A stretch of DNA of 64,000 bases. It comes from Escherichia phage vB_Eco_F26. The stretch lies in the sequence record OP870145.1. One strand, written 5' to 3'. Positions 3,156 through 63,989 of the stretch are shown here, in pieces; position 1 is the first letter of the stretch, and the number at the start of each line of letters is the position of its first letter. Below the pieces are notes generated by a model. It had not been told where the DNA came from, ran no database searches, and was given only the letters and a program-made list of their open reading frames with translations. The position numbers and the translations under genes were made by a program.

Positions 3156-3173
3156 AAGGGGCCGAAGCCCCTT
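3156..3173 (-). terminator. GC hairpin (GAAG/CUUC loop) downstream of hoc
   Basis: aaggggcc-gaag-cccctt immediately after hoc stop. Confidence 0.4.
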
Positions 3174-5333: not shown

Positions 5334-6845
5334 ATGACTGACATTAAAGTACATTTTTATGATTTTAGTCACGTGAGAATTGATTGTGAAGAAAGCACAT
5401 TTCATGAACTCCGTGATTTCTTTAGCTTTGAAGCTGATGGGTATCGTTTTAACCCTCGCTTCAGATATGGCAACTGGGATGGACGAATCCGTCTTTTAGA
5501 TTATAATCGTCTTCTTCCATTCGGTTTAGTCGGGCAAATTAAAAAGTTCTGTGATAACTTTGGCTATAAAGCCTGGATTGACCCACAGATTAACGAAAAA
5601 GAAGAATTATCAAGAAAAGATTTTGATGAATGGCTTTCTAAATTAGAAATCTATTCAGGAAATAAAAGAATTGAACCACACTGGTATCAAAAAGATGCAG
5701 TGTTCGAAGGATTAGTTAATCGTCGTAGAATTCTTAATCTTCCAACATCTGCAGGTAAATCGTTAATTCAAGCTCTGCTTGCTCGGTATTATTTGGAAAA
5801 TTATGAAGGTAAAATTCTTATCATTGTTCCAACAACTGCTCTAACAACTCAGATGGCTGATGACTTCGTTGACTATCGTTTATTCAGTCATGCAATGATA
5901 AAGAAAATTGGTGGCGGAGCATCAAAAGATGATAAATATAAAAATGATGCACCAGTCGTTGTTGGTACATGGCAAACTGTAGTAAAACAACCGAAAGAAT
6001 GGTTCTCACAGTTTGGAATGATGATGAATGATGAATGCCATCTTGCTACAGGAAAAAGTATTTCATCTATCATATCAGGTTTAAATAACTGCATGTTTAA
6101 ATTTGGTCTATCAGGTTCATTACGTGACGGCAAAGCCAATATCATGCAGTATGTTGGAATGTTTGGTGAAATATTTAAGCCAGTAACGACCTCTAAATTA
6201 ATGGAAGATGGACAAGTAACTGAGTTAAAAATTAATAGTATTTTTCTTCGCTATCCCGATGAGTTCACTACTAAATTAAAGGGAAAAACTTACCAAGAAG
6301 AAATAAAAATTATTACTGGGCTCAGTAAAAGAAATAAATGGATCGCTAAATTAGCTATTAAGCTTGCACAAAAAGATGAAAACGCTTTTGTCATGTTTAA
6401 ACATGTATCGCATGGTAAAGCTATTTTCGATTTAATTAAAAATGAATACGATAAAGTTTATTACGTATCAGGGGAAGTTGATACCGAAACCCGCAACGTA
6501 ATGAAAACCTTAGCTGAAAATGGTAAAGGAATAATTATAGTAGCTAGTTATGGTGTATTTTCTACTGGTATTTCAGTTAAAAATCTGCATCATGTTGTTT
6601 TAGCGCACGGCGTTAAATCAAAAATCATTGTATTACAAACAATCGGTCGTGTATTACGTAAGCATGGTTCTAAGACAATCGCAACTGTCTGGGACCTCAT
6701 AGATGACGCGGGCGTGGTTTCTAAATCAAAAACATCTTCTAAAAAATACTCGCATTTAAACTATCTTTTAAAACATGGACTTGATCGTATTCAGCGTTAT
6801 GCTGATGAAAAGTTTAATTATGTGATGAAAGAGGTTAAACTTTGA
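5334..6845 (+). CDS. uvsW: UvsW SF2 DNA helicase
   Basis: 503 aa; Walker A LPTSAGKS, DECH box; matches T4 UvsW length. Confidence 0.9.
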   Translation: MTDIKVHFYDFSHVRIDCEESTFHELRDFFSFEADGYRFNPRFRYGNWDGRIRLLDYNRLLPFGLVGQIKKFCDNFGYKAWIDPQINEKEELSRKDFDEWLSKLEIYSGNKRIEPHWYQKDAVFEGLVNRRRILNLPTSAGKSLIQALLARYYLENYEGKILIIVPTTALTTQMADDFVDYRLFSHAMIKKIGGGASKDDKYKNDAPVVVGTWQTVVKQPKEWFSQFGMMMNDECHLATGKSISSIISGLNNCMFKFGLSGSLRDGKANIMQYVGMFGEIFKPVTTSKLMEDGQVTELKINSIFLRYPDEFTTKLKGKTYQEEIKIITGLSKRNKWIAKLAIKLAQKDENAFVMFKHVSHGKAIFDLIKNEYDKVYYVSGEVDTETRNVMKTLAENGKGIIIVASYGVFSTGISVKNLHHVVLAHGVKSKIIVLQTIGRVLRKHGSKTIATVWDLIDDAGVVSKSKTSSKKYSHLNYLLKHGLDRIQRYADEKFNYVMKEVKL

Positions 6846-7534
6846 ATTATAAATTAATATATGATAATTTAATTAATAGAGCCCAGAATCGGGCTCGCCT
6901 TAATGGATACACTGAAACACATCATATAATTCCTAGATGTATGGGTGGTACAAATGATAAGTGTAATTTAGTAGAACTAACGGCTGAAGAACATTTTATA
7001 GCCCATAAACTTTTAGCTAAAATTCATCCAAATCATTACGGTATAATTAAAGCCGTTATATGTATGGGAATGAACTCAAAGACTCATGAAAGACACGTTA
7101 ATAAATCTTACGCGTGGGAACGTCGTAAAATGGCAGAACTTCAATCCGGCGAAGGTAATCCATTTTACGGAAAACACCATACGGAAGAACATAAACAATA
7201 TATGTCAAAACTCATGAAAAGTCGTCCAATTACATGGGGAAATAAAATTAGTAAAACTAAAAGAATGAACCCAACGAAATGGACTGAAGAAGCTAAAAGA
7301 TTACATTCAATCAATCAATCGGGTAAAAATAACGGCATGTATGGAAGGAAACATTCCGCTAAATCTATTCAGAAAATTAAAGATAACATGCCAGATAATT
7401 CAGGAGCTAATAACCCAGCTGCTAAACCTATAGAAGTAAATGGTGTTAAATATAAATGTATGAAAGATGCTTCTAAAGCTACTGGATTATCAATGTACAA
7501 ACTAAGAATACTTAGAAAAACAGTTAATTTATAA
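6842..7534 (+). CDS. Mob-type HNH homing endonuclease, free-standing, TTG start overlapping uvsW stop
   Basis: HHIIPRCMGG...NLVELTAEEHFIAH HNH motif, NUMOD3-like GxxNPFYGKHHTEEHK repeats; SD AAAGAGG 8 nt upstream of TTG; paralog of ORF 34989..35699. Confidence 0.8.
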   Translation: MNYKLIYDNLINRAQNRARLNGYTETHHIIPRCMGGTNDKCNLVELTAEEHFIAHKLLAKIHPNHYGIIKAVICMGMNSKTHERHVNKSYAWERRKMAELQSGEGNPFYGKHHTEEHKQYMSKLMKSRPITWGNKISKTKRMNPTKWTEEAKRLHSINQSGKNNGMYGRKHSAKSIQKIKDNMPDNSGANNPAAKPIEVNGVKYKCMKDASKATGLSMYKLRILRKTVNL

Positions 7535-7549
7535 GGGCTTCGGCCCTTT
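7534..7549 (+). terminator. GC hairpin (UUCG loop) after HNH gene
   Basis: aagggc-ttcg-gccctt. Confidence 0.4.
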
Positions 7550-7559
7550 GGAGAAAAAG

Positions 7560-7790
7560 ATGTTACTAGGATTTAAACAATTTCTTTATGAAGCTTCTAT
7601 TGATGAATTTATGGGTAAAATTGCCTCTTGTCAAACATTAGAAGGTTTAGAAGAACTTGAAGCTTATTATAAGAAAAGAGTCAAAGAAACTGAATTAAAA
7701 GATACTGATGACATCTCTGTAAGAGATGCTTTGGCAGGAAAAAGAGCTGAATTAGAAGATTCAGACGATGAAGTAGAAGAAAGCTTTTAA
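7560..7790 (+). CDS. uvsW.1: UvsW.1
   Basis: 76 aa from ATG at 7560 (tracker ORF extends upstream to a TTG); acidic C-terminus; T4 synteny. Confidence 0.7.
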   Translation: MLLGFKQFLYEASIDEFMGKIASCQTLEGLEELEAYYKKRVKETELKDTDDISVRDALAGKRAELEDSDDEVEESF

Positions 7791-7845
7791 ATTAAAAAAG
7801 GCCCAACCAAAAAGGAAGGGCCAAAACTATAGACTAAAGGTCACA

Positions 7846-8013
7846 CTATAGCAAAAGTTGTGTTTCATTTAATTGTTCTTCCGAACTTTCTGAAACTGGT
7901 AGTTCTTTAATGTAATTATAGCAAGGCCCAGGATGTACAGGACCTTTGTCTGTTTCAACAACCAATGCAGAATCGATTGGAGTTTTACAGACAACACAAA
8001 TCTTATCTGACAT
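7846..8013 (-). CDS. uvsY.-2-like small Cys-rich protein
   Basis: Start chosen at internal ATG with strong SD AAGGAG 6 nt upstream; CVVC...C motif. Confidence 0.55.
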   Translation of the reverse strand: MSDKICVVCKTPIDSALVVETDKGPVHPGPCYNYIKELPVSESSEEQLNETQLLL

Positions 8014-8136
8014 GATTGTCTCCTTTTGAATATAGTAATATTTATAAACCCATTTTAATCCGCATTTCTTGTACACGGATTAAGCAGGCTTCCATCTCTG
8101 CTAATAGTCGAAATACTTCTTTATAATCTGTCATAT

Positions 8137-8364
8137 TTACCCCATATCTCTCATATGCATATCAATGCCCATATCTTTAGAATAAAAATATTCATCAAGA
8201 TATCCGGCAAATTTTCCTTTAATATAAAGGACATCTTCACCACATGGGTGGTCGGCCAGGATACGAATATCCTGACGCTTAAGATTATGCTTTTTCATTA
8301 AGAATTGAATTTCCGTTTCAAATTCTTCTTCATAATTAAAAGCATCATCAATGTTATATCTCAT
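8137..8364 (-). CDS. uvsY.-1-like hypothetical protein
   Basis: 75 aa ORF, start overlaps uvsY stop. Confidence 0.55.
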   Translation of the reverse strand: MRYNIDDAFNYEEEFETEIQFLMKKHNLKRQDIRILADHPCGEDVLYIKGKFAGYLDEYFYSKDMGIDMHMRDMG

Positions 8365-8777
8365 TATTTTCCAGCCTCAAATGCTCGCATGTCTTGAATA
8401 TGCTTAATAGCAAATCCACGCGATTTAATAGCATCAAGAGCTCCGCTACAGAAATCTAATAAAATTCCCCAATATTGTAATGAAGTATCAACCTTTAAAA
8501 CATCCTTATCAGCTGATAGAACTGTTTTCATTTCTGATTTCTCGTAACGATCCATACTAAATTCATCACCATCTCCTCGTCCCGAGTAGTAGTCTAATTT
8601 AGCTTTAAGAGCAACTTTTTTCTGTGCATCAATTCTAAGCATTTCCTTTTTAATACTTGAATGCTTATTGAGCCATTTACTATATAACATCACATTATTA
8701 GCTGCTTCATACTGTAATTTAGTCGAATCTATAAACACATCTTTCTTCAATTCTTCTTGAAGATCTTCTAATCTCAT
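8364..8777 (-). CDS. uvsY: UvsY recombination mediator
   Basis: 137 aa, same length as T4 UvsY. Confidence 0.85.
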   Translation of the reverse strand: MRLEDLQEELKKDVFIDSTKLQYEAANNVMLYSKWLNKHSSIKKEMLRIDAQKKVALKAKLDYYSGRGDGDEFSMDRYEKSEMKTVLSADKDVLKVDTSLQYWGILLDFCSGALDAIKSRGFAIKHIQDMRAFEAGK

Positions 8778-8811
8778 ATTGTTCTCTATTCAATTGTTAT
8801 TGGATGGACTT

Positions 8812-8848
8812 AGATTCATTATACCACGTTTTAACGTGAAGCATTATA
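8812..8848 (-). promoter_or_regulatory. candidate middle promoter (MotA box ATGCTTCA plus TATAAT) for uvsY
   Basis: minus strand reads aATGCTTCAcgttaaaacgtggTATAAT about 40 nt upstream of uvsY start. Confidence 0.45.
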
Positions 8849-9242
8849 CTCTATTACTGGAAGCCAGCTGCAGTTTTATCTGCTCAATATCATCAGGGTT
8901 ATCGATGACCGAAAAGCGTATTTCTACTATCAGAGTATAATCATCATAAACTGGTATCACATTAACTGATAATTTATCAATACGTGGCTCATAGTTTCTT
9001 ACTGCGCTTTCAATATTGCGCTCAACTGTGTCAGCAGTAAGAGGAGTCATATTTTCAAAAAGCTGGTCTGATAAATCACATCCAAATTCAGGGTCAAACG
9101 GTCTTGAACCTTTTCTTGTTGTAATAATTCCCAAAAGACTGTTTTTAATTGACCTTAATCCAAGTGATCTGGAAACATCTTTGTTCCAATCCATTTTCAT
9201 TTCCGGGTCAATATCAGAATAAAGCTTATTAATATTTGCCAT
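8844..9242 (-). CDS. 25: baseplate wedge subunit gp25
   Basis: 132 aa; lysozyme-like gp25 family. Confidence 0.9.
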   Translation of the reverse strand: MANINKLYSDIDPEMKMDWNKDVSRSLGLRSIKNSLLGIITTRKGSRPFDPEFGCDLSDQLFENMTPLTADTVERNIESAVRNYEPRIDKLSVNVIPVYDDYTLIVEIRFSVIDNPDDIEQIKLQLASSNRV

Positions 9243-9868
9243 TATAGTAACTCAAAGAACTCTTTGAGGCCTCTTATTACGTGAGCATGGGTTTTTCCAC
9301 ACTCTGGACACTTAATTGGAACAGCCAAATAAACGGTAGGTTTTAAAAGCATATCTTTTATAGCTACAATATCTGACTCTGTGATGATAGAATATAAATC
9401 TTCTAGTTCCTTTTCATTTAAGTCTTCAACTGGAATGCTTTCCCCGTTAGCATGAATCGTTTCTATACATGATACTATCATGTGGGCTATATTTTTATCA
9501 TCAAAAATTTTAGGGTAATGGAATTTAATTTTAATGTCACCCAGTGTATACCAGAGGTCTTCTGGTGCATCTATTTGTGTATGTAATAGATTTATATGGG
9601 TTGGTATTTCAGTTCCACAGGTGCACTTCCAGGAGTTTTCGTGATTAACTTCACCAAGAGAATGTGCCCATAAATGAATCAACAATAGTTCTGATTCTTG
9701 GCGGTTTAAATCTTTTGCATTTGTGCAGTCTTTGATTAGCTTTTTAACAATTACTTCTACAGAACCATTATTTTTGGCAGTAATAAGTTCTAGATATTCT
9801 TTAAGCGTGAATGCGCGACAATTGATTATTTTAGAACCAACTCTCACATCAAATTTGTATTCATACAT
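9242..9868 (-). CDS. 26: baseplate hub subunit gp26
   Basis: 208 aa; T4 synteny. Confidence 0.85.
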
Positions 9869-9889
9869 ATTTAGCTCCTTTATTTATCA

Positions 9890-9901
9890 TATTTATAAAT
9901 A
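9890..9901. promoter_or_regulatory. divergent overlapping late promoters (TATAAATA on both strands) for genes 26 and 51
   Basis: tatttataaata palindrome-like sequence between divergent starts. Confidence 0.55.
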
Positions 9902-9918
9902 GAATAAAAGGAGCATCT

Positions 9919-10668
9919 ATGGCAAACATTATTCGTTGTAAATTACCAGATGGTGTTCATCGTTTTAAACCATTTACGGTAGAAGATTATCGAGATTTTT
10001 TGTTAGTTCGAAACGATATAGAACATCGGTCACCACAAGAACAAAAAGAAATAATTACTGATTTAATTGATGATTATTTTGGAGACTATCCGAAGACTTG
10101 GCAACCATTTATATTTTTGCAGGTATTTGTAGGGTCAATAGGTAAAACAAAAGTACCAGTCACATTCGTATGTCCAAAATGTAAAAAAGAAAAGACAGTT
10201 CCATTTGAAATATATCAAAAAGAATTAAAGGAACCTGTTTTTGATGTAGCTAATGTTAAAATTAAATTAAAGTTTCCTTCTGAGTTTTATGAAAATAAAG
10301 CAAAGATGATTACTGAAAATATTCATTCTGTTCAAGTAGATGAAATATGGTATGATTGGAAGGAAATTAGCGAATCAAGTCAAATAGAACTTGTTGATGC
10401 CATCGAGATAGAAACATTAGAAAAAATTCTCGATGCAATGAATCCTATTAATTTAACTCTACATATGTCATGCTGTAATAAGTACATTAAAAAATACACT
10501 GATATAGTAGACGTGTTTAAGCTATTAGTTAACCCAGATGAAATATTTACTTTTTATCAAATTAATCACACACTCGTAAAAAGTAATTATAGCTTAAATT
10601 CAATAATGAAAATGATTCCTGCTGAGCGCGGATTCGTATTAAAACTGATTGAGAAGGATAAACAATAA
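9919..10668 (+). CDS. 51: baseplate hub assembly catalyst gp51
   Basis: 249 aa; T4 synteny. Confidence 0.85.
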
Positions 10669-15193: not shown

Positions 15194-16116
15194 TGTATTC
15201 TTTAGAGGAATTTAATAATCAAGCAATAAACGCAGATTTCCAACGTAATAATATGTTTAGCTGCGTTTTTGCAACAACTCCATCAACTAAAAGCTCTTCG
15301 TTGATAAGTTCAATTAGCAACTTTTCTTATAATAACTTGGGCCTAAATTCAAATTGGTTAGGATTAACTCAAGGTGATATTAATCAGGGAATTACCACGC
15401 TAATTACAGCTGGCACACAAAAACTGATAAGAAAATCAGGGGTTAGTAAATATCTTATTGGTGCCATGAGTCAACGTACAGTTCAAAGTTTATTAGGCTC
15501 ATTTACAGTTGGTACATATTTAATTGACTTCTTTAACATGGCATATAACTCATCTGGATTGATGATATATTCTGTAAAAATGCCAGAGAATAGATTATCC
15601 TATGAAACTGACTGGAACTATAATTCTCCTAATATTCGTATAACTGGAAGAGAATTAGACCCTTTGGTTATTTCATTTAGAATGGATTCAGAAGCTTGTA
15701 ACTATCGTGCAATGCAAGACTGGGTTAACGCTGTTCAAGACCCAGTAACTGGACTGCGTGCTTTGCCACAAGATGTCGAGGCAGATATTCAGGTTAATCT
15801 TCATTCTCGTAATGGATTGCCTCATACTGCGGTGATGTTCACCGGATGCATTCCAATATCAGTGAGCGGTCCTGAGTTATCATATGATGGAGATAACCAA
15901 ATAACTACATTTGATGTTACTTTTGCGTATAGAGTGATGCAGGCTGGAGCGGTTGATAGACAAGCTGCGCTTGAATGGCTTGAATCTGCTGCTATAAATG
16001 GTATTCAAAGCGTTCTCGGAAATAGTGGAGGTGTTACTGGACTATCTAATTCGCTTTCACGACTCAGTAGATTAGGGGGAACCTCAGGAAGCATTTCAAA
16101 TATTAGTATACTATGA
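15193..16116 (+). CDS. 54: baseplate tail tube initiator gp54
   Basis: 307 aa; T4 synteny. Confidence 0.85.
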   Translation: MYSLEEFNNQAINADFQRNNMFSCVFATTPSTKSSSLISSISNFSYNNLGLNSNWLGLTQGDINQGITTLITAGTQKLIRKSGVSKYLIGAMSQRTVQSLLGSFTVGTYLIDFFNMAYNSSGLMIYSVKMPENRLSYETDWNYNSPNIRITGRELDPLVISFRMDSEACNYRAMQDWVNAVQDPVTGLRALPQDVEADIQVNLHSRNGLPHTAVMFTGCIPISVSGPELSYDGDNQITTFDVTFAYRVMQAGAVDRQAALEWLESAAINGIQSVLGNSGGVTGLSNSLSRLSRLGGTSGSISNISIL

Positions 16117-16164
16117 CAGGGATTGTCAATTCGCAGAGTAAAATATTAGGAGCAATATAACAAT

Positions 16165-16182
16165 GGGGACCTTTCGGTCCCC
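16165..16182 (+). terminator. GC hairpin plus T-run after gene 54
   Basis: ggggacc-tttc-ggtcccc followed by atatttttattt. Confidence 0.55.
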
Positions 16183-16188
16183 ATATTT

Positions 16189-16479
16189 TTATTTACGGAA
16201 TGAAATGAAAGCAGAAACTGAAGCAACTAAACTGTCTTCAATATAAACTTCAATTTTTACCGGAGCTTCTGACTCAAATTTACCTGTTACTACACCCTGA
16301 AAAATACTTTCAGTCTGTTCTGGCTTTGAAAAATTTTCAGAAGGAAAAATTCCAAACTTTTTATCTGTTCCGAAAATTTTGATAAATTCATCATAAACTG
16401 CTTCATTAAAAGCATTATCAGCAGGAATAACGCCTTCAACTACAAGTTCTTGACCTAAAAAGCGTAAAGAAGATTTCAT
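16189..16479 (-). CDS. hypothetical protein downstream of alt
   Basis: 96 aa ORF; start preceded by promoter/stem-loop cassette. Confidence 0.5.
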   Translation of the reverse strand: MKSSLRFLGQELVVEGVIPADNAFNEAVYDEFIKIFGTDKKFGIFPSENFSKPEQTESIFQGVVTGKFESEAPVKIEVYIEDSLVASVSAFISFRK

Positions 16480-16484
16480 TTTGT

Positions 16485-16545
16485 GTTCCTCATGTTATGT
16501 CAGTAAGAATACTATAACACAACATGAGGGACTTGTAAACTACAT
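16485..16545 (-). repeat. PeSL-like cassette copy A: early promoter (GTTTAC -35) plus stem-loop sequestering SD
   Basis: 50/53 nt identical to copy at 28957..29012; 9-bp stem cctcatgtt/aacatgagg contains GAGG SD of downstream ORF. Confidence 0.6.
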
Positions 16546-16898
16546 TTTGAACTTTTTAGTACGCGTAATAGGCATGCGTCGATTTTATACTGTTTCATTG
16601 TTTGAAGAGCAGTATCAAAAACAGCATTAATGACACCAATTGGATTTCCACCCAAGTTTTTAAGCTTAACTAATGATAGTTTCTCATTAACACCTATCAT
16701 TACGATATGCATCATTTTGTCGCCTGGTTTAACGTTTTATCTGTATCACCGCCAGAGGTGTATGTACAAAATCTAAATCCAGGAAGCACGCTTTCTTCGC
16801 CGGTTTGAATAGCAAAAATTTGTGGTATTTTATGCTTAGGATTTAAGTTAACAACCGGCGCCGAAGCGCCGTCAAATAATTATGTAATAAGTTCCATG
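16545..16898 (-). pseudogene. decayed tandem duplicate of the alt 5' end (N-terminal ~130 codons)
   Basis: about 70% nt identity to alt 18540..18997; ATGGAACTTATTACATAA gives stop at codon 6; alt segment replaced by ggcgccgaagcgcc hairpin; residual 67-aa ORF 16512..16715 aligns to Alt residues ~63-125. Confidence 0.65.
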
Positions 16899-16900
16899 AT

Positions 16901-18997
16901 TTATCCTTGAACGAACTTGTAAGGCATGTTTGCAATATCTATGCAAGACGCAATAATTCCAAGAGATGATTCTACTTTCTGTTTAACATTTGATGAAACA
17001 AATGATGCAAAGTCAACTCTGTCTTCTATTTCAATATCACCTGTCATTGCAACTACTTCGCCAGTTTCCATTAGACGGTCACCGTCATAAATTACTGATT
17101 CGGTGAGTTCTTCCGTAGTCATAACTTCAGCTTGAATGAGTTTTGTATTATTAGATGTTGTTCCGTCATTATTAGAAGCATCAGTTATTTTATTAACTTT
17201 GACCATCAATCCGCGCGGTAGAATAACTTCAGCTTCTGTTGCTATTCCGAGACTTCCTGGATATACAACATTAACTTTATGAGCTCCATCAATTGCCCAT
17301 CCTATTTGAACTTTAACGTATTCAGGATTTTCTTTATACGCTCTTATTTCGTTTGGATTAATAGTTATTCCTTCTTCATTTTTATCAACTGTTAATTCAT
17401 TGCGAGCTTCTGGTTCTAAAAGACCGATACCAGCATGTGTAATTCCAAAACGTCCAAAAATGATAGGAGTTAAAGAAGTAGATACAAAATTTCTGAAATA
17501 GAACACTTTATTTTTAACTAGTGCTTCGTATATAGGAGCAGTCATGCTTTGAGCACGATAAACTGTAATGCCTTCTGGTATACGGTCACCATTTTCAAAA
17601 GCTGAATCTAAATTATTTATCGCAGATTCAATTTCTTTTTCACTCATTACATCATATCGTTCTGGATTGTAGCGGCCTAAAAGAAGATTATTGATGTCAG
17701 TATATCCTGATCCACAATATTCTCTAATGCCGCGCTTTTGTGATGGAGTATATTTAGAACCATCACGGGCAATAGTAATATCAATCATTGGACCTGCACC
17801 AATTCCAGAAAAACTATAAATCATTCGTTTGAGGAATTTAGTTTTTGCTGCGTTCCAGGAATTTTTAGTTATTTCTTCCCAGACTTCATCTGGCTGTCCT
17901 TTACGGGTTTTATTATGTTTATCAAGCCAATTATCTTTATATTCTTCAAAGAATTTATTAACAGCTGCTGCGTATTTCTCTAAACATTTTATTGAAGTAG
18001 TTGGTTCATTTTTAATCGCATTAAGAATTACATCTTTAATTTTTTCAGAAACTTCATCAACCTCACTTTTTGAAAAGAATTTATAGTCATAGTGAAGTTC
18101 ATTTGCAGTTCCTTCAGCAATAATTTTTGCTGCCTTAGTTTTAGAAGCTAATGAATTAATTCCAAGCTTCATTTCTTCTGCTTCGGGAATTAAAGGAGCG
18201 GTAGCAGGTTTATTAAAATTAGCTGCGGTAGATTCATACTTCTGGAATAATTCACTTTCAAATCTAGAAGATTCTAATGATTGACTTTGCGCAATTGCTC
18301 TACGGGAAATTTTAACTTTAACAATAACAGCTTGGTCAGAACGTTTATCATTTTCTTGTGCAATAGATGCTGCAATTGCCTCATTTTTAGTTACTTGAGC
18401 TCCGGTATCTTTATTGATATAAACATCGCCGACCTTCGATTCAACTTTAGTAAAGAGCTCGGTACTAATTTCCGGAACTCCTGGAATGTCTTCTAGTGAT
18501 ACATTTTTGCGATGTATAAGAATATATGCATACTTTTTATCATAATCCCAGAGTTCCTTAAGAAGGACGTATCTGCCGCCTGAACGACTACGGATAAGTC
18601 TATCAGCAATAACTTGAATTTGTCGAGCTTGACCAGCAGTTTTAGACTTAAGAATACGAAGCATACAGGCATCAATTTTATACTGACGCATTGTTTGCAT
18701 TGCAACAGTAAAAACTGAATTGATGTAATTAATTGGGCTTGGACCGAGACCTTTTAATTTAGCAATTGAACCTTTAGCAGTTAGTGTAAAAGGAACAATG
18801 TGCATCATTTTATCGCCCATCTTTAAATCACGGTTAGTATCACCTCCAGATGTATAGGTACATAAACGAAAGCCTGGTTGTTCAATTGCGTCATCAACAT
18901 GAACTGAAAAAATTTGCGGTATTTTCTTCTTTGGATTTAAGTTTGTAATCGGAAGAGTAGTATCTTCGTCAAATAATTCTGTAATTAGTTCCATCAT
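16901..18997 (-). CDS. alt: Alt ADP-ribosyltransferase (packaged head protein)
   Basis: 698 aa; T4 position between gene 54 and gene 30. Confidence 0.85.
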   Translation of the reverse strand: MMELITELFDEDTTLPITNLNPKKKIPQIFSVHVDDAIEQPGFRLCTYTSGGDTNRDLKMGDKMMHIVPFTLTAKGSIAKLKGLGPSPINYINSVFTVAMQTMRQYKIDACMLRILKSKTAGQARQIQVIADRLIRSRSGGRYVLLKELWDYDKKYAYILIHRKNVSLEDIPGVPEISTELFTKVESKVGDVYINKDTGAQVTKNEAIAASIAQENDKRSDQAVIVKVKISRRAIAQSQSLESSRFESELFQKYESTAANFNKPATAPLIPEAEEMKLGINSLASKTKAAKIIAEGTANELHYDYKFFSKSEVDEVSEKIKDVILNAIKNEPTTSIKCLEKYAAAVNKFFEEYKDNWLDKHNKTRKGQPDEVWEEITKNSWNAAKTKFLKRMIYSFSGIGAGPMIDITIARDGSKYTPSQKRGIREYCGSGYTDINNLLLGRYNPERYDVMSEKEIESAINNLDSAFENGDRIPEGITVYRAQSMTAPIYEALVKNKVFYFRNFVSTSLTPIIFGRFGITHAGIGLLEPEARNELTVDKNEEGITINPNEIRAYKENPEYVKVQIGWAIDGAHKVNVVYPGSLGIATEAEVILPRGLMVKVNKITDASNNDGTTSNNTKLIQAEVMTTEELTESVIYDGDRLMETGEVVAMTGDIEIEDRVDFASFVSSNVKQKVESSLGIIASCIDIANMPYKFVQG

Positions 18998-19030
18998 ATC
19001 CTCTCTAGTGTTTATTCTATTTATAAAATT

Positions 19031-19048
19031 AAAGGCCCGAAGGCCTTT
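19031..19048 (-). terminator. GC hairpin upstream of alt
   Basis: aaaggcc-cgaa-ggccttt. Confidence 0.4.
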
Positions 19049-19235
19049 AGTAATCTAGTGGTAAGAGAGTACGATATATTTCAAACTTTGGTCCTTTTTC
19101 ATAGGCATCAAATGCTTCTGTGAATTTATTATAAGCGTATGCATCTACAAATTCGAGAATGACTTGTGATACAGAAGTAGAAACATCTCCACCTTCTTTT
19201 TGAGCAATGACAATTGTTTCTAAGTAAGCTTTCAT
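19047..19235 (-). CDS. hypothetical protein
   Basis: 62 aa ORF, start overlaps gene 30 stop. Confidence 0.4.
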   Translation of the reverse strand: MKAYLETIVIAQKEGGDVSTSVSQVILEFVDAYAYNKFTEAFDAYEKGPKFEIYRTLLPLDY

Positions 19236-20695
19236 AGACCAGTTACCTCATGAAAATCACCAAATACATCCTCGAATGTATTAGCTTTAGTTTTATCTTC
19301 GCGTAAACGAATCGCAATCGGAAGAAATAATTTAACGTAATCAGTGCGGCCATCAGATTTTAACCAACCATTGCATTCGCACTCTAGAATTTTTCCAATA
19401 TAATAATTTTGGTTTTCCATAATGCGAGTACGGTCAAGTTCATGTGATTTTACGCCGGCTTTATCTTTTAAGCCTGAACCAGCATTTACCTTAATTTTTC
19501 CACACTCTGACTCAAGAATAAATCCACCTGCTTTAGTAGGGTCTTTACGGTGAGGATAAATTCCTACAATTTTTAAATCAACATCAATTACTTCTTTAAA
19601 TTTATAGAGATTTTTTGAACGAGCATTTTCCCATAATCCATCGATATTTTTGAGAATAATACCTTCAAGACCTTGGTCAATATACTTTTTATAAATTACC
19701 TTAGCTTCATCTAGGTTATTTACTACCTGGTTTTCAATTAAAATTACTTTATCATAGCCTGATGTCATTTGTTCTAGTTTAGAAAAACGTACATCATATT
19801 TCAAACGAAATGCAGGAAGACCGTATATTTCTACCAACGGGACATAATCCCAAACCTGAAACTTCATGCATTGAGCTTCTTTTTCAGAAATGGTTCCCTT
19901 TAAAGATTTATTAGCGATTCCATTAGAAGTAGTACGTGATTCAGCTACTTCTGTGAAGTCTTTAACTTTACTGTTTTCAGGATGAGCATCAAAAAGAAAA
20001 TCTAGGCCTTCTGACTCCTTTTTAACTTGCTCATGGTATACCAATTCGCCATCAATTAACACGCCTTCTGGATGAATCTGGCGGGCTTCAGCGGTCATTT
20101 TGATTAATTCTTCCTTAAGAAGATCTAATCCTAGATATTCATTACCGGCTCGTGATAAAAGACGAACATCATCTAATTCATCACCTCTGACTTCGGCAAA
20201 GCACCGAGCCCCATCAGCTTTTAACTGGGCAAAGGCTGGAAATTTGATATTCTTATTAATGCCTTTTTCATCATAAGAACTTGCAAGCATTTGAGGTTGT
20301 TCAGGAATTAAACCTGGCCAAACTTTGTTTGCAATAGATACTGAAGCACCACATTCAAGGTCTCGCATCATCACTCGACGCAAAACTTCAACATCATCTT
20401 TTTTACCATCGGTGATATATCCAGTTAATTCCTCAATTGCTGCATTTCCAGTCAATTTCCGAGTAGCTAATGTGAATTCAATGAAGTCAAGCATATCGGT
20501 AAGAGTCAACATTCCAAAACTCTGGGTAGCAATACCAGGTTTAGGCCATTTCTTGATATAATACTGCAACCCACGAGAATAAGTCAGACGATATACTCGT
20601 TTAAGCAATTCATTATCTTTATTCTTTTCAAGAATTGCTTGCTTCTGCTTAGTTGAACCAATAGATGCTATTTCGTTCAGAATTTTAAGAATCAT
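19232..20695 (-). CDS. 30: ATP-dependent DNA ligase gp30
   Basis: 487 aa; adenylation motif KADGAR. Confidence 0.9.
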   Translation of the reverse strand: MILKILNEIASIGSTKQKQAILEKNKDNELLKRVYRLTYSRGLQYYIKKWPKPGIATQSFGMLTLTDMLDFIEFTLATRKLTGNAAIEELTGYITDGKKDDVEVLRRVMMRDLECGASVSIANKVWPGLIPEQPQMLASSYDEKGINKNIKFPAFAQLKADGARCFAEVRGDELDDVRLLSRAGNEYLGLDLLKEELIKMTAEARQIHPEGVLIDGELVYHEQVKKESEGLDFLFDAHPENSKVKDFTEVAESRTTSNGIANKSLKGTISEKEAQCMKFQVWDYVPLVEIYGLPAFRLKYDVRFSKLEQMTSGYDKVILIENQVVNNLDEAKVIYKKYIDQGLEGIILKNIDGLWENARSKNLYKFKEVIDVDLKIVGIYPHRKDPTKAGGFILESECGKIKVNAGSGLKDKAGVKSHELDRTRIMENQNYYIGKILECECNGWLKSDGRTDYVKLFLPIAIRLREDKTKANTFEDVFGDFHEVTGL

Positions 20696-23017: not shown

Positions 23018-23047
23018 AACTTTATGCAATCTTTGGAAAATAAAAAA

Positions 23048-23065
23048 GGACTCCCGAAGGAGTCC
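23048..23065 (-). terminator. GC hairpin
   Basis: ggactcc-cgaa-ggagtcc. Confidence 0.45.
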
Positions 23066-23070
23066 TCAAC

Positions 23071-54303: not shown

Positions 54304-54319
54304 AGGGGCTTCGGCCCCT
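54304..54319 (+). promoter_or_regulatory. stem-loop between SD and start codon of gene 38
   Basis: SD AAGGAG at 54298..54303, hairpin aggggc-ttcg-gcccct, ATG at 54327. Confidence 0.45.
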
Positions 54320-62740: not shown

Positions 62741-62823
62741 TTAAACTTTCCTTTTATGTCTGAATCACTGGTATTCATATAAATCATAATTTCTCTTAAA
62801 ACAAAAGGGCCGAAGCCCTTATT

Positions 62824-63018: not shown

Positions 63019-63050
63019 AATTTTCCTTGATGTGATAAGGGCCGAAGCCC

Positions 63051-63989
63051 TTATTTAAATTGTTCAGTAACGTCTTCAACTACTTCGTATTGGCAGGTAC
63101 GCATTTTAGCATCGTTGTAATCAATCGGAATTGATACTACATCACGCGGATGTACTTTAACTTTTACAACTCGGCTGGTTGAACTGCCAAAGTGACGAAT
63201 ATAAGATTTAGAACACACATGCAGACCACGAGAACAAGTCTGTGTATCATCGTCATTCACACGAGTACGCGGCATTTTAACTACTTTACCCGGACTGTTA
63301 TCAAAGGTGTTTGAGTGACAGTCAAAGTAATTGCTGCGAACTACTTTCCAAGCATAGAAGTAACCATCTTCTGTAATTTCAATATCGTTTGCTACCAAGA
63401 AATCAAAGAGTCGAGATACCGCTTTTTGGCTTGGGTTTTCCAGCAGATTTTCCAAGAACGGGAAATAAAATTCAAAGTTTTCGCCTTTTTCCATCGAGTC
63501 AAGAATACGATCAATTAAACCAGACCGCAATTCAATATTTTGATAGAACAAGCTTCCACCTTCAATTCGAACATCACCGGAAATATATTTTTCAACAGCG
63601 CGACGAACGTTAATTTTTTGTGCCGCTTCTTCCAACTTATCCGCTACAAGCAGATTAAGAATTTCCTGGAAGTTTGAATGAGTATTAGGAGTTGCGTTAT
63701 AAGTTACGCCATCAACAGTAATTGAAATGAATTTTTTAGATGCATTCCAAATAATGTCAGATTTAGCAACTGGAGCAATAACTGCATCGCTATTAACTTT
63801 AACTGTAATATCACCGCTAATAGTAACTTTAGGGCGTTTAGCTTCTTCAGCATTTTTCAAAACACGACGGATTGTGTCAACCGATACACCTTGCCAATCA
63901 GCCAATTCCTGTTGGGTGTAATTACCACTTGAATACAGTTTAACAATTTCAGCTTGTTCGTTTTTGGTCAGGCATTTAATATTGTACAT
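63051..63989 (-). CDS. rIIB: rIIB
   Basis: 312 aa, same length as T4 rIIB; window ends 11 nt upstream of start. Confidence 0.85.
   Translation of the reverse strand: MYNIKCLTKNEQAEIVKLYSSGNYTQQELADWQGVSVDTIRRVLKNAEEAKRPKVTISGDITVKVNSDAVIAPVAKSDIIWNASKKFISITVDGVTYNATPNTHSNFQEILNLLVADKLEEAAQKINVRRAVEKYISGDVRIEGGSLFYQNIELRSGLIDRILDSMEKGENFEFYFPFLENLLENPSQKAVSRLFDFLVANDIEITEDGYFYAWKVVRSNYFDCHSNTFDNSPGKVVKMPRTRVNDDDTQTCSRGLHVCSKSYIRHFGSSTSRVVKVKVHPRDVVSIPIDYNDAKMRTCQYEVVEDVTEQFK

Follow-up and report, generated by a model that had tools for sequence, protein, structure and literature searches.

In bacteriophage T4, the space between alt and alt.-3 holds two short reading frames, alt.-1 and alt.-2 (NP_049810 and NP_049809; NC_000866, 123065-123450), which the T4 RefSeq record describes as duplicating the beginning of alt. 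Nolan et al. (2006) likewise describe alt.-1/alt.-2 as an alt duplicate (PMC1524935). The two frames form separate PHROG families, phrog_23015 (alt.-1) and phrog_15247 (alt.-2), both of unknown function, while their neighbor alt.-3 plays a role in CmdTAC escape (PMC11618068). PeSL cassettes have also been described in T4-type phages, where they are said to mediate shuffling (PMC2839356, PMC4122927), with a PST/T4 promoter consensus TTTACW-N17-TAYWAT (PMC4122927). We analyzed a window of 64,000 nucleotides from Escherichia phage vB_Eco_F26 (OP870145.1), in which an alt-like stretch lies directly downstream of alt. An earlier note on this DNA did not recognize the stretch as the alt.-1/alt.-2 locus of the T4 RefSeq record, already annotated and known. 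Having stood in the T4 reference annotation for decades, and having been noted in comparative studies, the feature holds little discovery value as such. New here are the exact deletion, its direction, the finding that T-even phages with it are a minority, and an allele-specific TAA codon.

The locus is that of a Tequatrovirus (T4-like phage). On the minus strand, DNA ligase (19232-20695), alt.1 (19047-19235), alt (16901-18994, or 18997), the alt-like stretch and alt.-3 (16189-16479) follow one another, and genes 54, 48 and 29 lie on the plus strand, convergent with the alt.-3 side. The nearest records, Escherichia phages BYEP01 and BYEP02, are 99.4% identical over positions 16100-17000. In the ORF list, alt encodes the packaged Alt ADP-ribosyltransferase, an A-type paralog of 697 aa counted from MELITE (the ORF finder begins one ATG earlier, at 18997); it carries Pfam domain PF03496 at residues 378-627 (E = 1.8e-37) and is 99% identical to the Alt of phage RB32. 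A structure search weakly matched the Alt ART core to binary-toxin enzymes (CdtA, iota Ia), and matched no solved structure to the Alt N-terminal domain. Upstream of alt, the minus-strand gene alt.1 matches the Pfam 'Phage blade protein' family (PF24647, E = 4.7e-29). On the other side, alt.-3 (96 aa, DUF5498, by T4 annotation) is an intact neighbor outside the alt-like stretch. Between alt.-3 and gene 54 lies a bidirectional terminator (16163-16184), which reads ATGGGGACC-GAAA-GGTCCCCAT in the window and ATGGACC-TTTC-GGTCCCCAT, with a flipped loop and a shorter stem, in T4. Gene 54 encodes 307 aa in the window versus 320 aa in T4.

Local alignment of the alt 5' end (18600-18994, minus strand) with the downstream copy (16540-16898, minus strand) gives 234 identities in 350 ungapped columns, or 67%. 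The score of 100 compares with 11.6 +/- 1.5 in 500 dinucleotide-preserving shuffles (z about 59), and the similarity does not reflect low-complexity sequence. This agrees with the earlier note, which had estimated about 70% nucleotide identity to the alt start over some 350 bp and had named a similarity below chance or confined to low-complexity sequence as the result that would speak against it. Its boundaries are slightly displaced: the second ATGGAACTTATTACA is present, with its first base at 16897 instead of 16898, and alt homology runs to about 16551, near the proposed end at 16545 but not the same. The ATG of the copy (16897-16895, minus strand) stands 3 nt past the alt stop (TAA, 16903-16901), and the copy adjoins alt on its 3' side and is followed by alt.-3, all on the minus strand.

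The alt.-1 segment (16712-16897, minus strand; T4 homolog alt.-1) corresponds to Alt residues 1-61. The open 61-codon alt.-1 ORF of T4 is absent from the window, where codon 6 is TAA (16882-16880), as had been claimed from the letters; further on, the alt.-1 frame is closed by a TGA (16714-16712) because of an upstream 1-nt loss. The alt.-2 ORF (16512-16715, minus strand; T4 alt.-2 annotation, phrog_15247) encodes 67 aa, begins with a Met-Met that equals Alt M63-M64 and aligns with Alt residues 63-125, again as first described. Both frames match the Alt-like family phrog_802, with E-values of 8.5e-20 and 4.6e-18 that identify them as homologs of the Alt N-terminus: alt.-1 covers profile positions 2-61 and the alt.-2 ORF positions 64-120, the latter with E = 8.5e-20. 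The alt.-1 profile matches (phrog_23015, and phrog_802 at positions 2-61) were obtained with the TAA codon translated as Glu. A Pfam search found no domain in alt.-2, and the ART catalytic domain, with its R / S-T-S / E-x-E motifs, is absent from the remnant; it falls within 1,699 bp that are missing here. The remnant is thus without catalytic capacity.

Those 1,699 bp are found in relatives. Between alt and alt.-3, RB32 has an ORF of 2,058 nt (685 aa), hereafter altB, which its record labels "alt.-2 ... apparent insertion in alt.-2; similar to alt". RB32 AltB is 41% identical to Alt overall and contains a PF03496 ART domain (residues 416-620) with the motifs YRG, STS and EAEVILPRG. T2 likewise has an intact second Alt-like gene at the altB position. 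The remnant shares about 96% amino-acid identity with the first 116 aa of RB32 AltB and shows only scattered nucleotide differences from intact altB; once repaired for its frameshift, it matches most Tequatrovirus records as one unbroken piece (tblastn). The check for relatives with an intact second alt, suggested in the earlier note, finds it in RB32, T2 and about 400 others, with two copies in JS98 and three in E33. These intact tandem genes bear out the idea that the stretch is what is left of an ancestral alt paralog pair.

The form shared by the window and T4 equals intact altB minus 1,699 bp lying between two 9-bp direct repeats, CTAAAAAGT. RB32 reads ...CGCGTA-CTAAAAAGT-AAAACAAATGG... 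at codons 115-118 and ...GGAATGT-CTAAAAAGT-TCAAAATGTAG at the end of altB, and the window reads ...CGCGTA-CTAAAAAGT-TCAAAATGTAG. The 6.5-kb RB32 locus has exactly two copies of the repeat, one at each end point, 1,699 bp apart. At the window junction (16551-16559, minus strand, placed by comparison with RB32) there is a single copy, so that the short form corresponds to the long one after loss of 1,699 bp. Directly past this sole remaining copy stand the last 11 nt of ancestral altB (16540-16550, minus strand; TCAAAATGTAG, encoding ..F K M stop, with TAG at 16542-16540), identical to the RB32 3' end and almost the same as the altB 3' ends of JS98 and E33. The T4 junction, ...GCGTACTAAAAAGT/TCAAAATGTAG..., is present in the window too, and a 55-mer across it is 100% identical in T4 records. 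What is retained of altB is its initial 347 nt and its final 11 nt; codons from about 118 on, with the whole ART domain, are lost. As 1,699 = 3 x 566 + 1, the deletion is out of frame, and alt.-2 consequently runs past the old stop (TAG, 16542-16540): it crosses the junction off the ancestral frame and ends at a TAG (16514-16512) inside the -10 box of a promoter. Judging from the repeats, the deletion likely arose by replication slippage or short-homology recombination.

We thus read the stretch as a dead deletion remnant of a second full-length alt paralog, altB, with a probability of about 0.88. In this scenario, the position of altB between alt and alt.-3, held in most Tequatrovirus genomes, would be the starting arrangement, and an ancestor of T4 and of this phage would have lost 1,699 bp of altB between the CTAAAAAGT repeats. 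Lesions differing among phages then followed, in the window the loss of 1 nt in an A-run and a change of codon 6 from GAA to TAA, and the remnant DNA keeps signals of the intact locus, namely a UUCG hairpin and the alt.-3 promoter with its stem-loop. Homology, deletion end points, polarity, population frequencies and the extra lesions are direct observations; a lack of protein function is inferred, and the remnant is most likely dispensable as a protein.

The direction of the change deserves attention. The T4 record speaks of a "duplication of the first part of alt" and the RB32 record of an "apparent insertion in alt.-2", and each wording misstates the polarity. RB32 AltB aligns with Alt without a break across the 5' junction; because Alt homology is unbroken at that end point, the event is a deletion in T4 and not an insertion in RB32. 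The same follows from the content of the supposed insert, which encodes the remaining part of an Alt-type enzyme with orthologs elsewhere. The T4-record view, in which only the first part of alt was duplicated, then acquiring a stop and a new start, and in which a full-length second gene never stood here, draws on the T4 RefSeq notes and on the N-terminal 125 residues of the remnant, which are 62% identical to the neighboring Alt versus 37-42% to the JS98 paralogs. We nevertheless consider it highly improbable: 402 records hold an intact altB whose 5' end shares about 96% of its amino acids with the remnant, the altB-specific 3' end TCAAAATGTAG is kept in the remnant, 9-bp repeats mark the deletion, and beyond the N-terminus AltB is an ortholog of JS98 AltB.

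Population counts show the short form to be the minority state. In the phage genome collection, 402 records cover 80% or more of the 1,707-bp segment absent from the window, and 89 records, among them T4 and its laboratory derivatives, contain the junction 55-mer. In agreement with the latter count, 90 of 502 matching records span a 901-bp query contiguously. The intact gene is present in about 82% of Tequatrovirus records. The counts were taken from the phage genome collection because an IMG/VR scan with a junction 28-mer gave only two contigs.

Downstream of the remnant, an early-type sigma-70 promoter for alt.-3, TTTACA-N17-TATAGT with a TG extension (16511-16539, minus strand; 10/12 matches), is the best promoter-like site of the region, and the Lutter record marks a promoter there. 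A stem-loop (16485-16532, minus strand; -24.1 kcal/mol, z = -5.2, a stability matched by none of 200 shuffles) overlaps its -10 box and contains in its 3' arm the alt.-3 Shine-Dalgarno GAGG (16491-16488). This arrangement suggests that the stem-loop may mask the alt.-3 ribosome-binding site in read-through transcripts, and not in those begun at this promoter. With an early promoter that fits the PST/T4 consensus and a stable stem-loop beside the stop codon of the upstream gene, the element qualifies as a PeSL. Could this cassette have cut the second alt copy, by insertion or recombination, or could the copy be a fragment of another phage's alt, as the earlier note had it? A PeSL-like element (TTTACA-N17-TATAGT plus a strong stem-loop) does lie directly downstream, and PeSLs are reported to shuffle T4-type genes (PMC2839356, PMC4122927), but this account is hardly credible here. 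The same promoter and stem-loop follow the intact altB of RB32 and T2, and JS98 altB has the same stop/-35 junction and a comparable promoter-bearing spacer, which indicates that the cassette is in its native place. Since the last 11 nt of altB, including the TAG stop, are retained between junction and cassette, altB was not cut off by the cassette. The recombination boundary itself lies 11 nt upstream of the cassette and consists of the CTAAAAAGT microhomology, not of PeSL sequence, and nothing requires recombination with another phage's alt.

A second signal lies at the other end of the remnant. Starting 29 nt past the alt stop, a fold and a hairpin scan both identify a C(UUCG)G tetraloop hairpin (16856-16871, minus strand); the perfect hairpin reported in the earlier note is indeed there, as CGGCGC-TTCG-GCGCCG at 16871-16856. 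Its interpretation as decay, with an alt segment replaced by a GC hairpin, does not stand: the hairpin is native, being invariant in 10 remnants and in the intact altB of RB32 and T2, where it encodes D-G-A-S-A-P (codons 10-15). At the homologous place, the B-type alts of JS98 and E33 have no such hairpin and fold no better than shuffles. We also considered an intrinsic terminator; the hairpin has no U-tail, and a terminator scan made no call. Its position suggests that it may act as a 3' stabilizing structure for alt mRNA.

UUCG hairpins are common in the window at large. Counting perfect hairpins with stems of at least 5 bp over the whole 64 kb, we found 14 versus 0.57 in shuffles, an enrichment of about 25-fold. 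Examples lie at 211-230, 3156-3173, 7533-7548, 19030-19049, 23047-23066, 54304-54319, 62805-62820 and 63035-63054, and most have a U/T-rich tail, as expected at transcript ends.

We aligned ten remnants (the window, JEP6, T4, e11/2, two IMG/VR contigs, SG1, fPS-90, FN and F25) with RB32 altB. Codon 6 (16880-16882, minus strand), which is GAA in T4, RB32 and T2, is TAA in the window, JEP6, SG1, fPS-90 and FN, and GAA in e11/2, the two contigs and F25. This TAA takes the place of the Glu after which Alt is cleaved (following MELITE); the X15811 annotation states "6 amino acids cleaved off" Alt. A 55-mer with the TAA occurs in 44 records, and all those checked bear the deletion. A second lesion affects an A-run (16735-16738, minus strand), which by alignment of remnants and altB has five residues in intact altB, SG1 and fPS-90 and four in the eight other remnants; the split between alt.-1 and alt.-2 results from this 1-nt loss, so that SG1 and fPS-90 have no frameshift. 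Further lesions are limited to a 9-nt deletion in FN and a 1-nt deletion in the junction A-run of F25. The junction flanks form mosaic haplotypes (6-11 sequences compared). Disabling lesions that are scattered and different among phages fit relaxed constraint, or a dead remnant.

The same alignment bears on the possibility that the remnant still yields small proteins: Alt.-2 and, in phages such as T4 whose alt.-1 is intact, Alt.-1. These would descend from the head-targeting N-terminal domain of Alt and be kept, for example, for modulation of Alt packaging or partner binding. The alt.-2 ORF is open in 10 of 10 sampled remnants, and the FN deletion inside it is in frame; in T4 and e11/2 the two frames share an ATGA overlap, an arrangement typical of coupling; Alt.-1 retains the MELITE cleavage/targeting motif; and each frame has its own PHROG family. 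Yet alt.-1 is closed by TAA in 44 of the 89 deletion-bearing records, the window included, and its boundary with alt.-2 exists only where the A-run has lost a base, SG1 and fPS-90 having none. The C-terminus of Alt.-2 is an out-of-frame read-through into the promoter and is altered in F25; no Pfam domain is found in Alt.-2; and in about 82% of Tequatrovirus records the intact gene stands in its place. We therefore regard expressed small proteins as improbable, and retain the dead altB remnant as the preferred reading.

How old is the remnant? The earlier note called it decayed. However, the 33% nucleotide divergence from alt is also seen in the intact, ART-bearing altB of RB32 and T2, and the remnant is about 96% identical to altB at the amino-acid level; the divergence is hence that between two functional paralogs and not pseudogene decay. 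The truncation itself is recent: given the near-identity to intact alleles, little time has passed since the deletion, and a lack of decay or the presence of an ORF says little either way. In its core idea, that an alt paralog pair left this remnant, the earlier note was right; its ideas of decay, replacement by a hairpin and truncation by a PeSL were wrong.

The paralogs themselves are old. In window Alt numbering, RB32 AltB is 62% identical to its own Alt and 42% to JS98 AltB over residues 1-125, and 74% and 49%, respectively, over residues 126-235. The pattern is reversed in the central part (236-415; 8% to Alt versus 47% to JS98 AltB), in the ART domain (416-630; 36% versus 55%) and in the C-terminal part (631-697; 44% versus 61%). 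By these identities, the central, catalytic and C-terminal parts of AltB group with those of the second Alt of JS98, and the A and B types are therefore old paralogs that predate the genus split. Intact tandem alts number two in JS98 (Dhakavirus) and three in E33; in both phages the last copy is followed by ...TTCAAAATGTAG-TTTACAA... and alt.-3.

The N-terminal part of tandem Alts follows its own course. Over about 235 residues, identity is 62-74% within a genome but 37-50% when orthologs are compared across genera, and this relation is inverted in the central and catalytic parts. Such within-genome likeness could reflect gene conversion or concerted evolution, or else co-adaptation for head targeting, under a constraint from the phage's own head. 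Mosaic genes are seen elsewhere: in E33 (OL780484.1, 7001-13113; compared with JS98, 6001-10215), the middle of the three alts has a JS98-AltA-type N-terminus (97-99%) and an ART domain 95% identical to T4-type Alt, and is thus mosaic across genera. Aeromonas phage 44RR2.8t (2558-7426) has two extra alt-like ORFs, 187c (full length) and 188c (319 aa), upstream of alt; 44RR has no alt.-3.

Tequatrovirus NIC06P2 (OZ035760.1, 3998-6064) has a single alt, whose product is nearly the same as Alt up to the end of the ART domain, with 100% identity in both the N-terminal 125 residues and the ART region, while its C-terminal 65 residues or so are 93% identical to RB32 AltB. This Alt/AltB fusion marks another, independent way in which altB has been lost, through recombination between tandem paralogs; the alt of phage 'sutha' may resemble this fusion. 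One might speculate, though we think it unlikely, that the altB slot is under fluctuating selection: AltB, probably head-packaged and injected, would be kept by about 80% of T-even phages and lost at least twice by different routes (the 1,699-bp deletion and the NIC06P2 fusion), possibly being costly, or sensed by a defense system, in some hosts, and the remnant would be kept for the alt 3' hairpin and/or an Alt.-2 micro-protein.

For the biology of T4, the main consequence is that a microhomology deletion of a full-length gene has left this phage without a second Alt-type ADP-ribosyltransferase, which most of its relatives, T2 included, still encode. We found no report of an AltB target in the literature. 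For studies of injected ADP-ribosyltransferases in host takeover, the AltB of T2 or RB32 would be a better subject than T4.

Four sets of known systems can be compared with this locus. C(UUCG)G hairpins of T4 mRNAs were reportedly described by Tuerk et al. in 1988. The remnant hairpin belongs with these, as it has a C-UUCG-G loop on a G+C stem just past a gene end, but it departs from the class in having no U-tail and in being coding sequence in relatives with an intact altB. The tandem alt arrays of other Straboviridae (two copies in JS98, three in E33, and alt + ORF187c + ORF188c in Aeromonas 44RR) occupy the same locus, from ligase/alt.1 to alt.-3/gene 54, with the B-type copy downstream as in altB and the stop/-35 junction TTCAAAATGTAGTTTACAA in common. 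Their N-terminal domains are alike within a genome and not with cross-genus orthologs; they differ from the window in that their copies are intact and that the UUCG hairpin is missing at the homologous place.

Closer still are the altB genes of RB32 and T2, in which the first 347-348 nt, the last 11 nt and the downstream promoter and stem-loop are nearly identical to the window. Apart from scattered substitutions and a 1-nt difference in the A-run, the window differs from them in lacking the 1,699 bp, and with it residues from about 118 to 681, the PF03496 domain included. The closest counterpart is T4 alt.-1/alt.-2, which has the same position between alt and alt.-3, the same junction (100% identical over the 55-mer), the same A4 frameshift, hairpin and alt.-2 ORF. 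Specific to the window are the change of GAA to TAA at codon 6, which closes alt.-1 after 5 codons, and a few point differences, one of which replaces a G.U pair in the alt.-3 stem-loop by A-U (position 16525, A in the window and G in T4).
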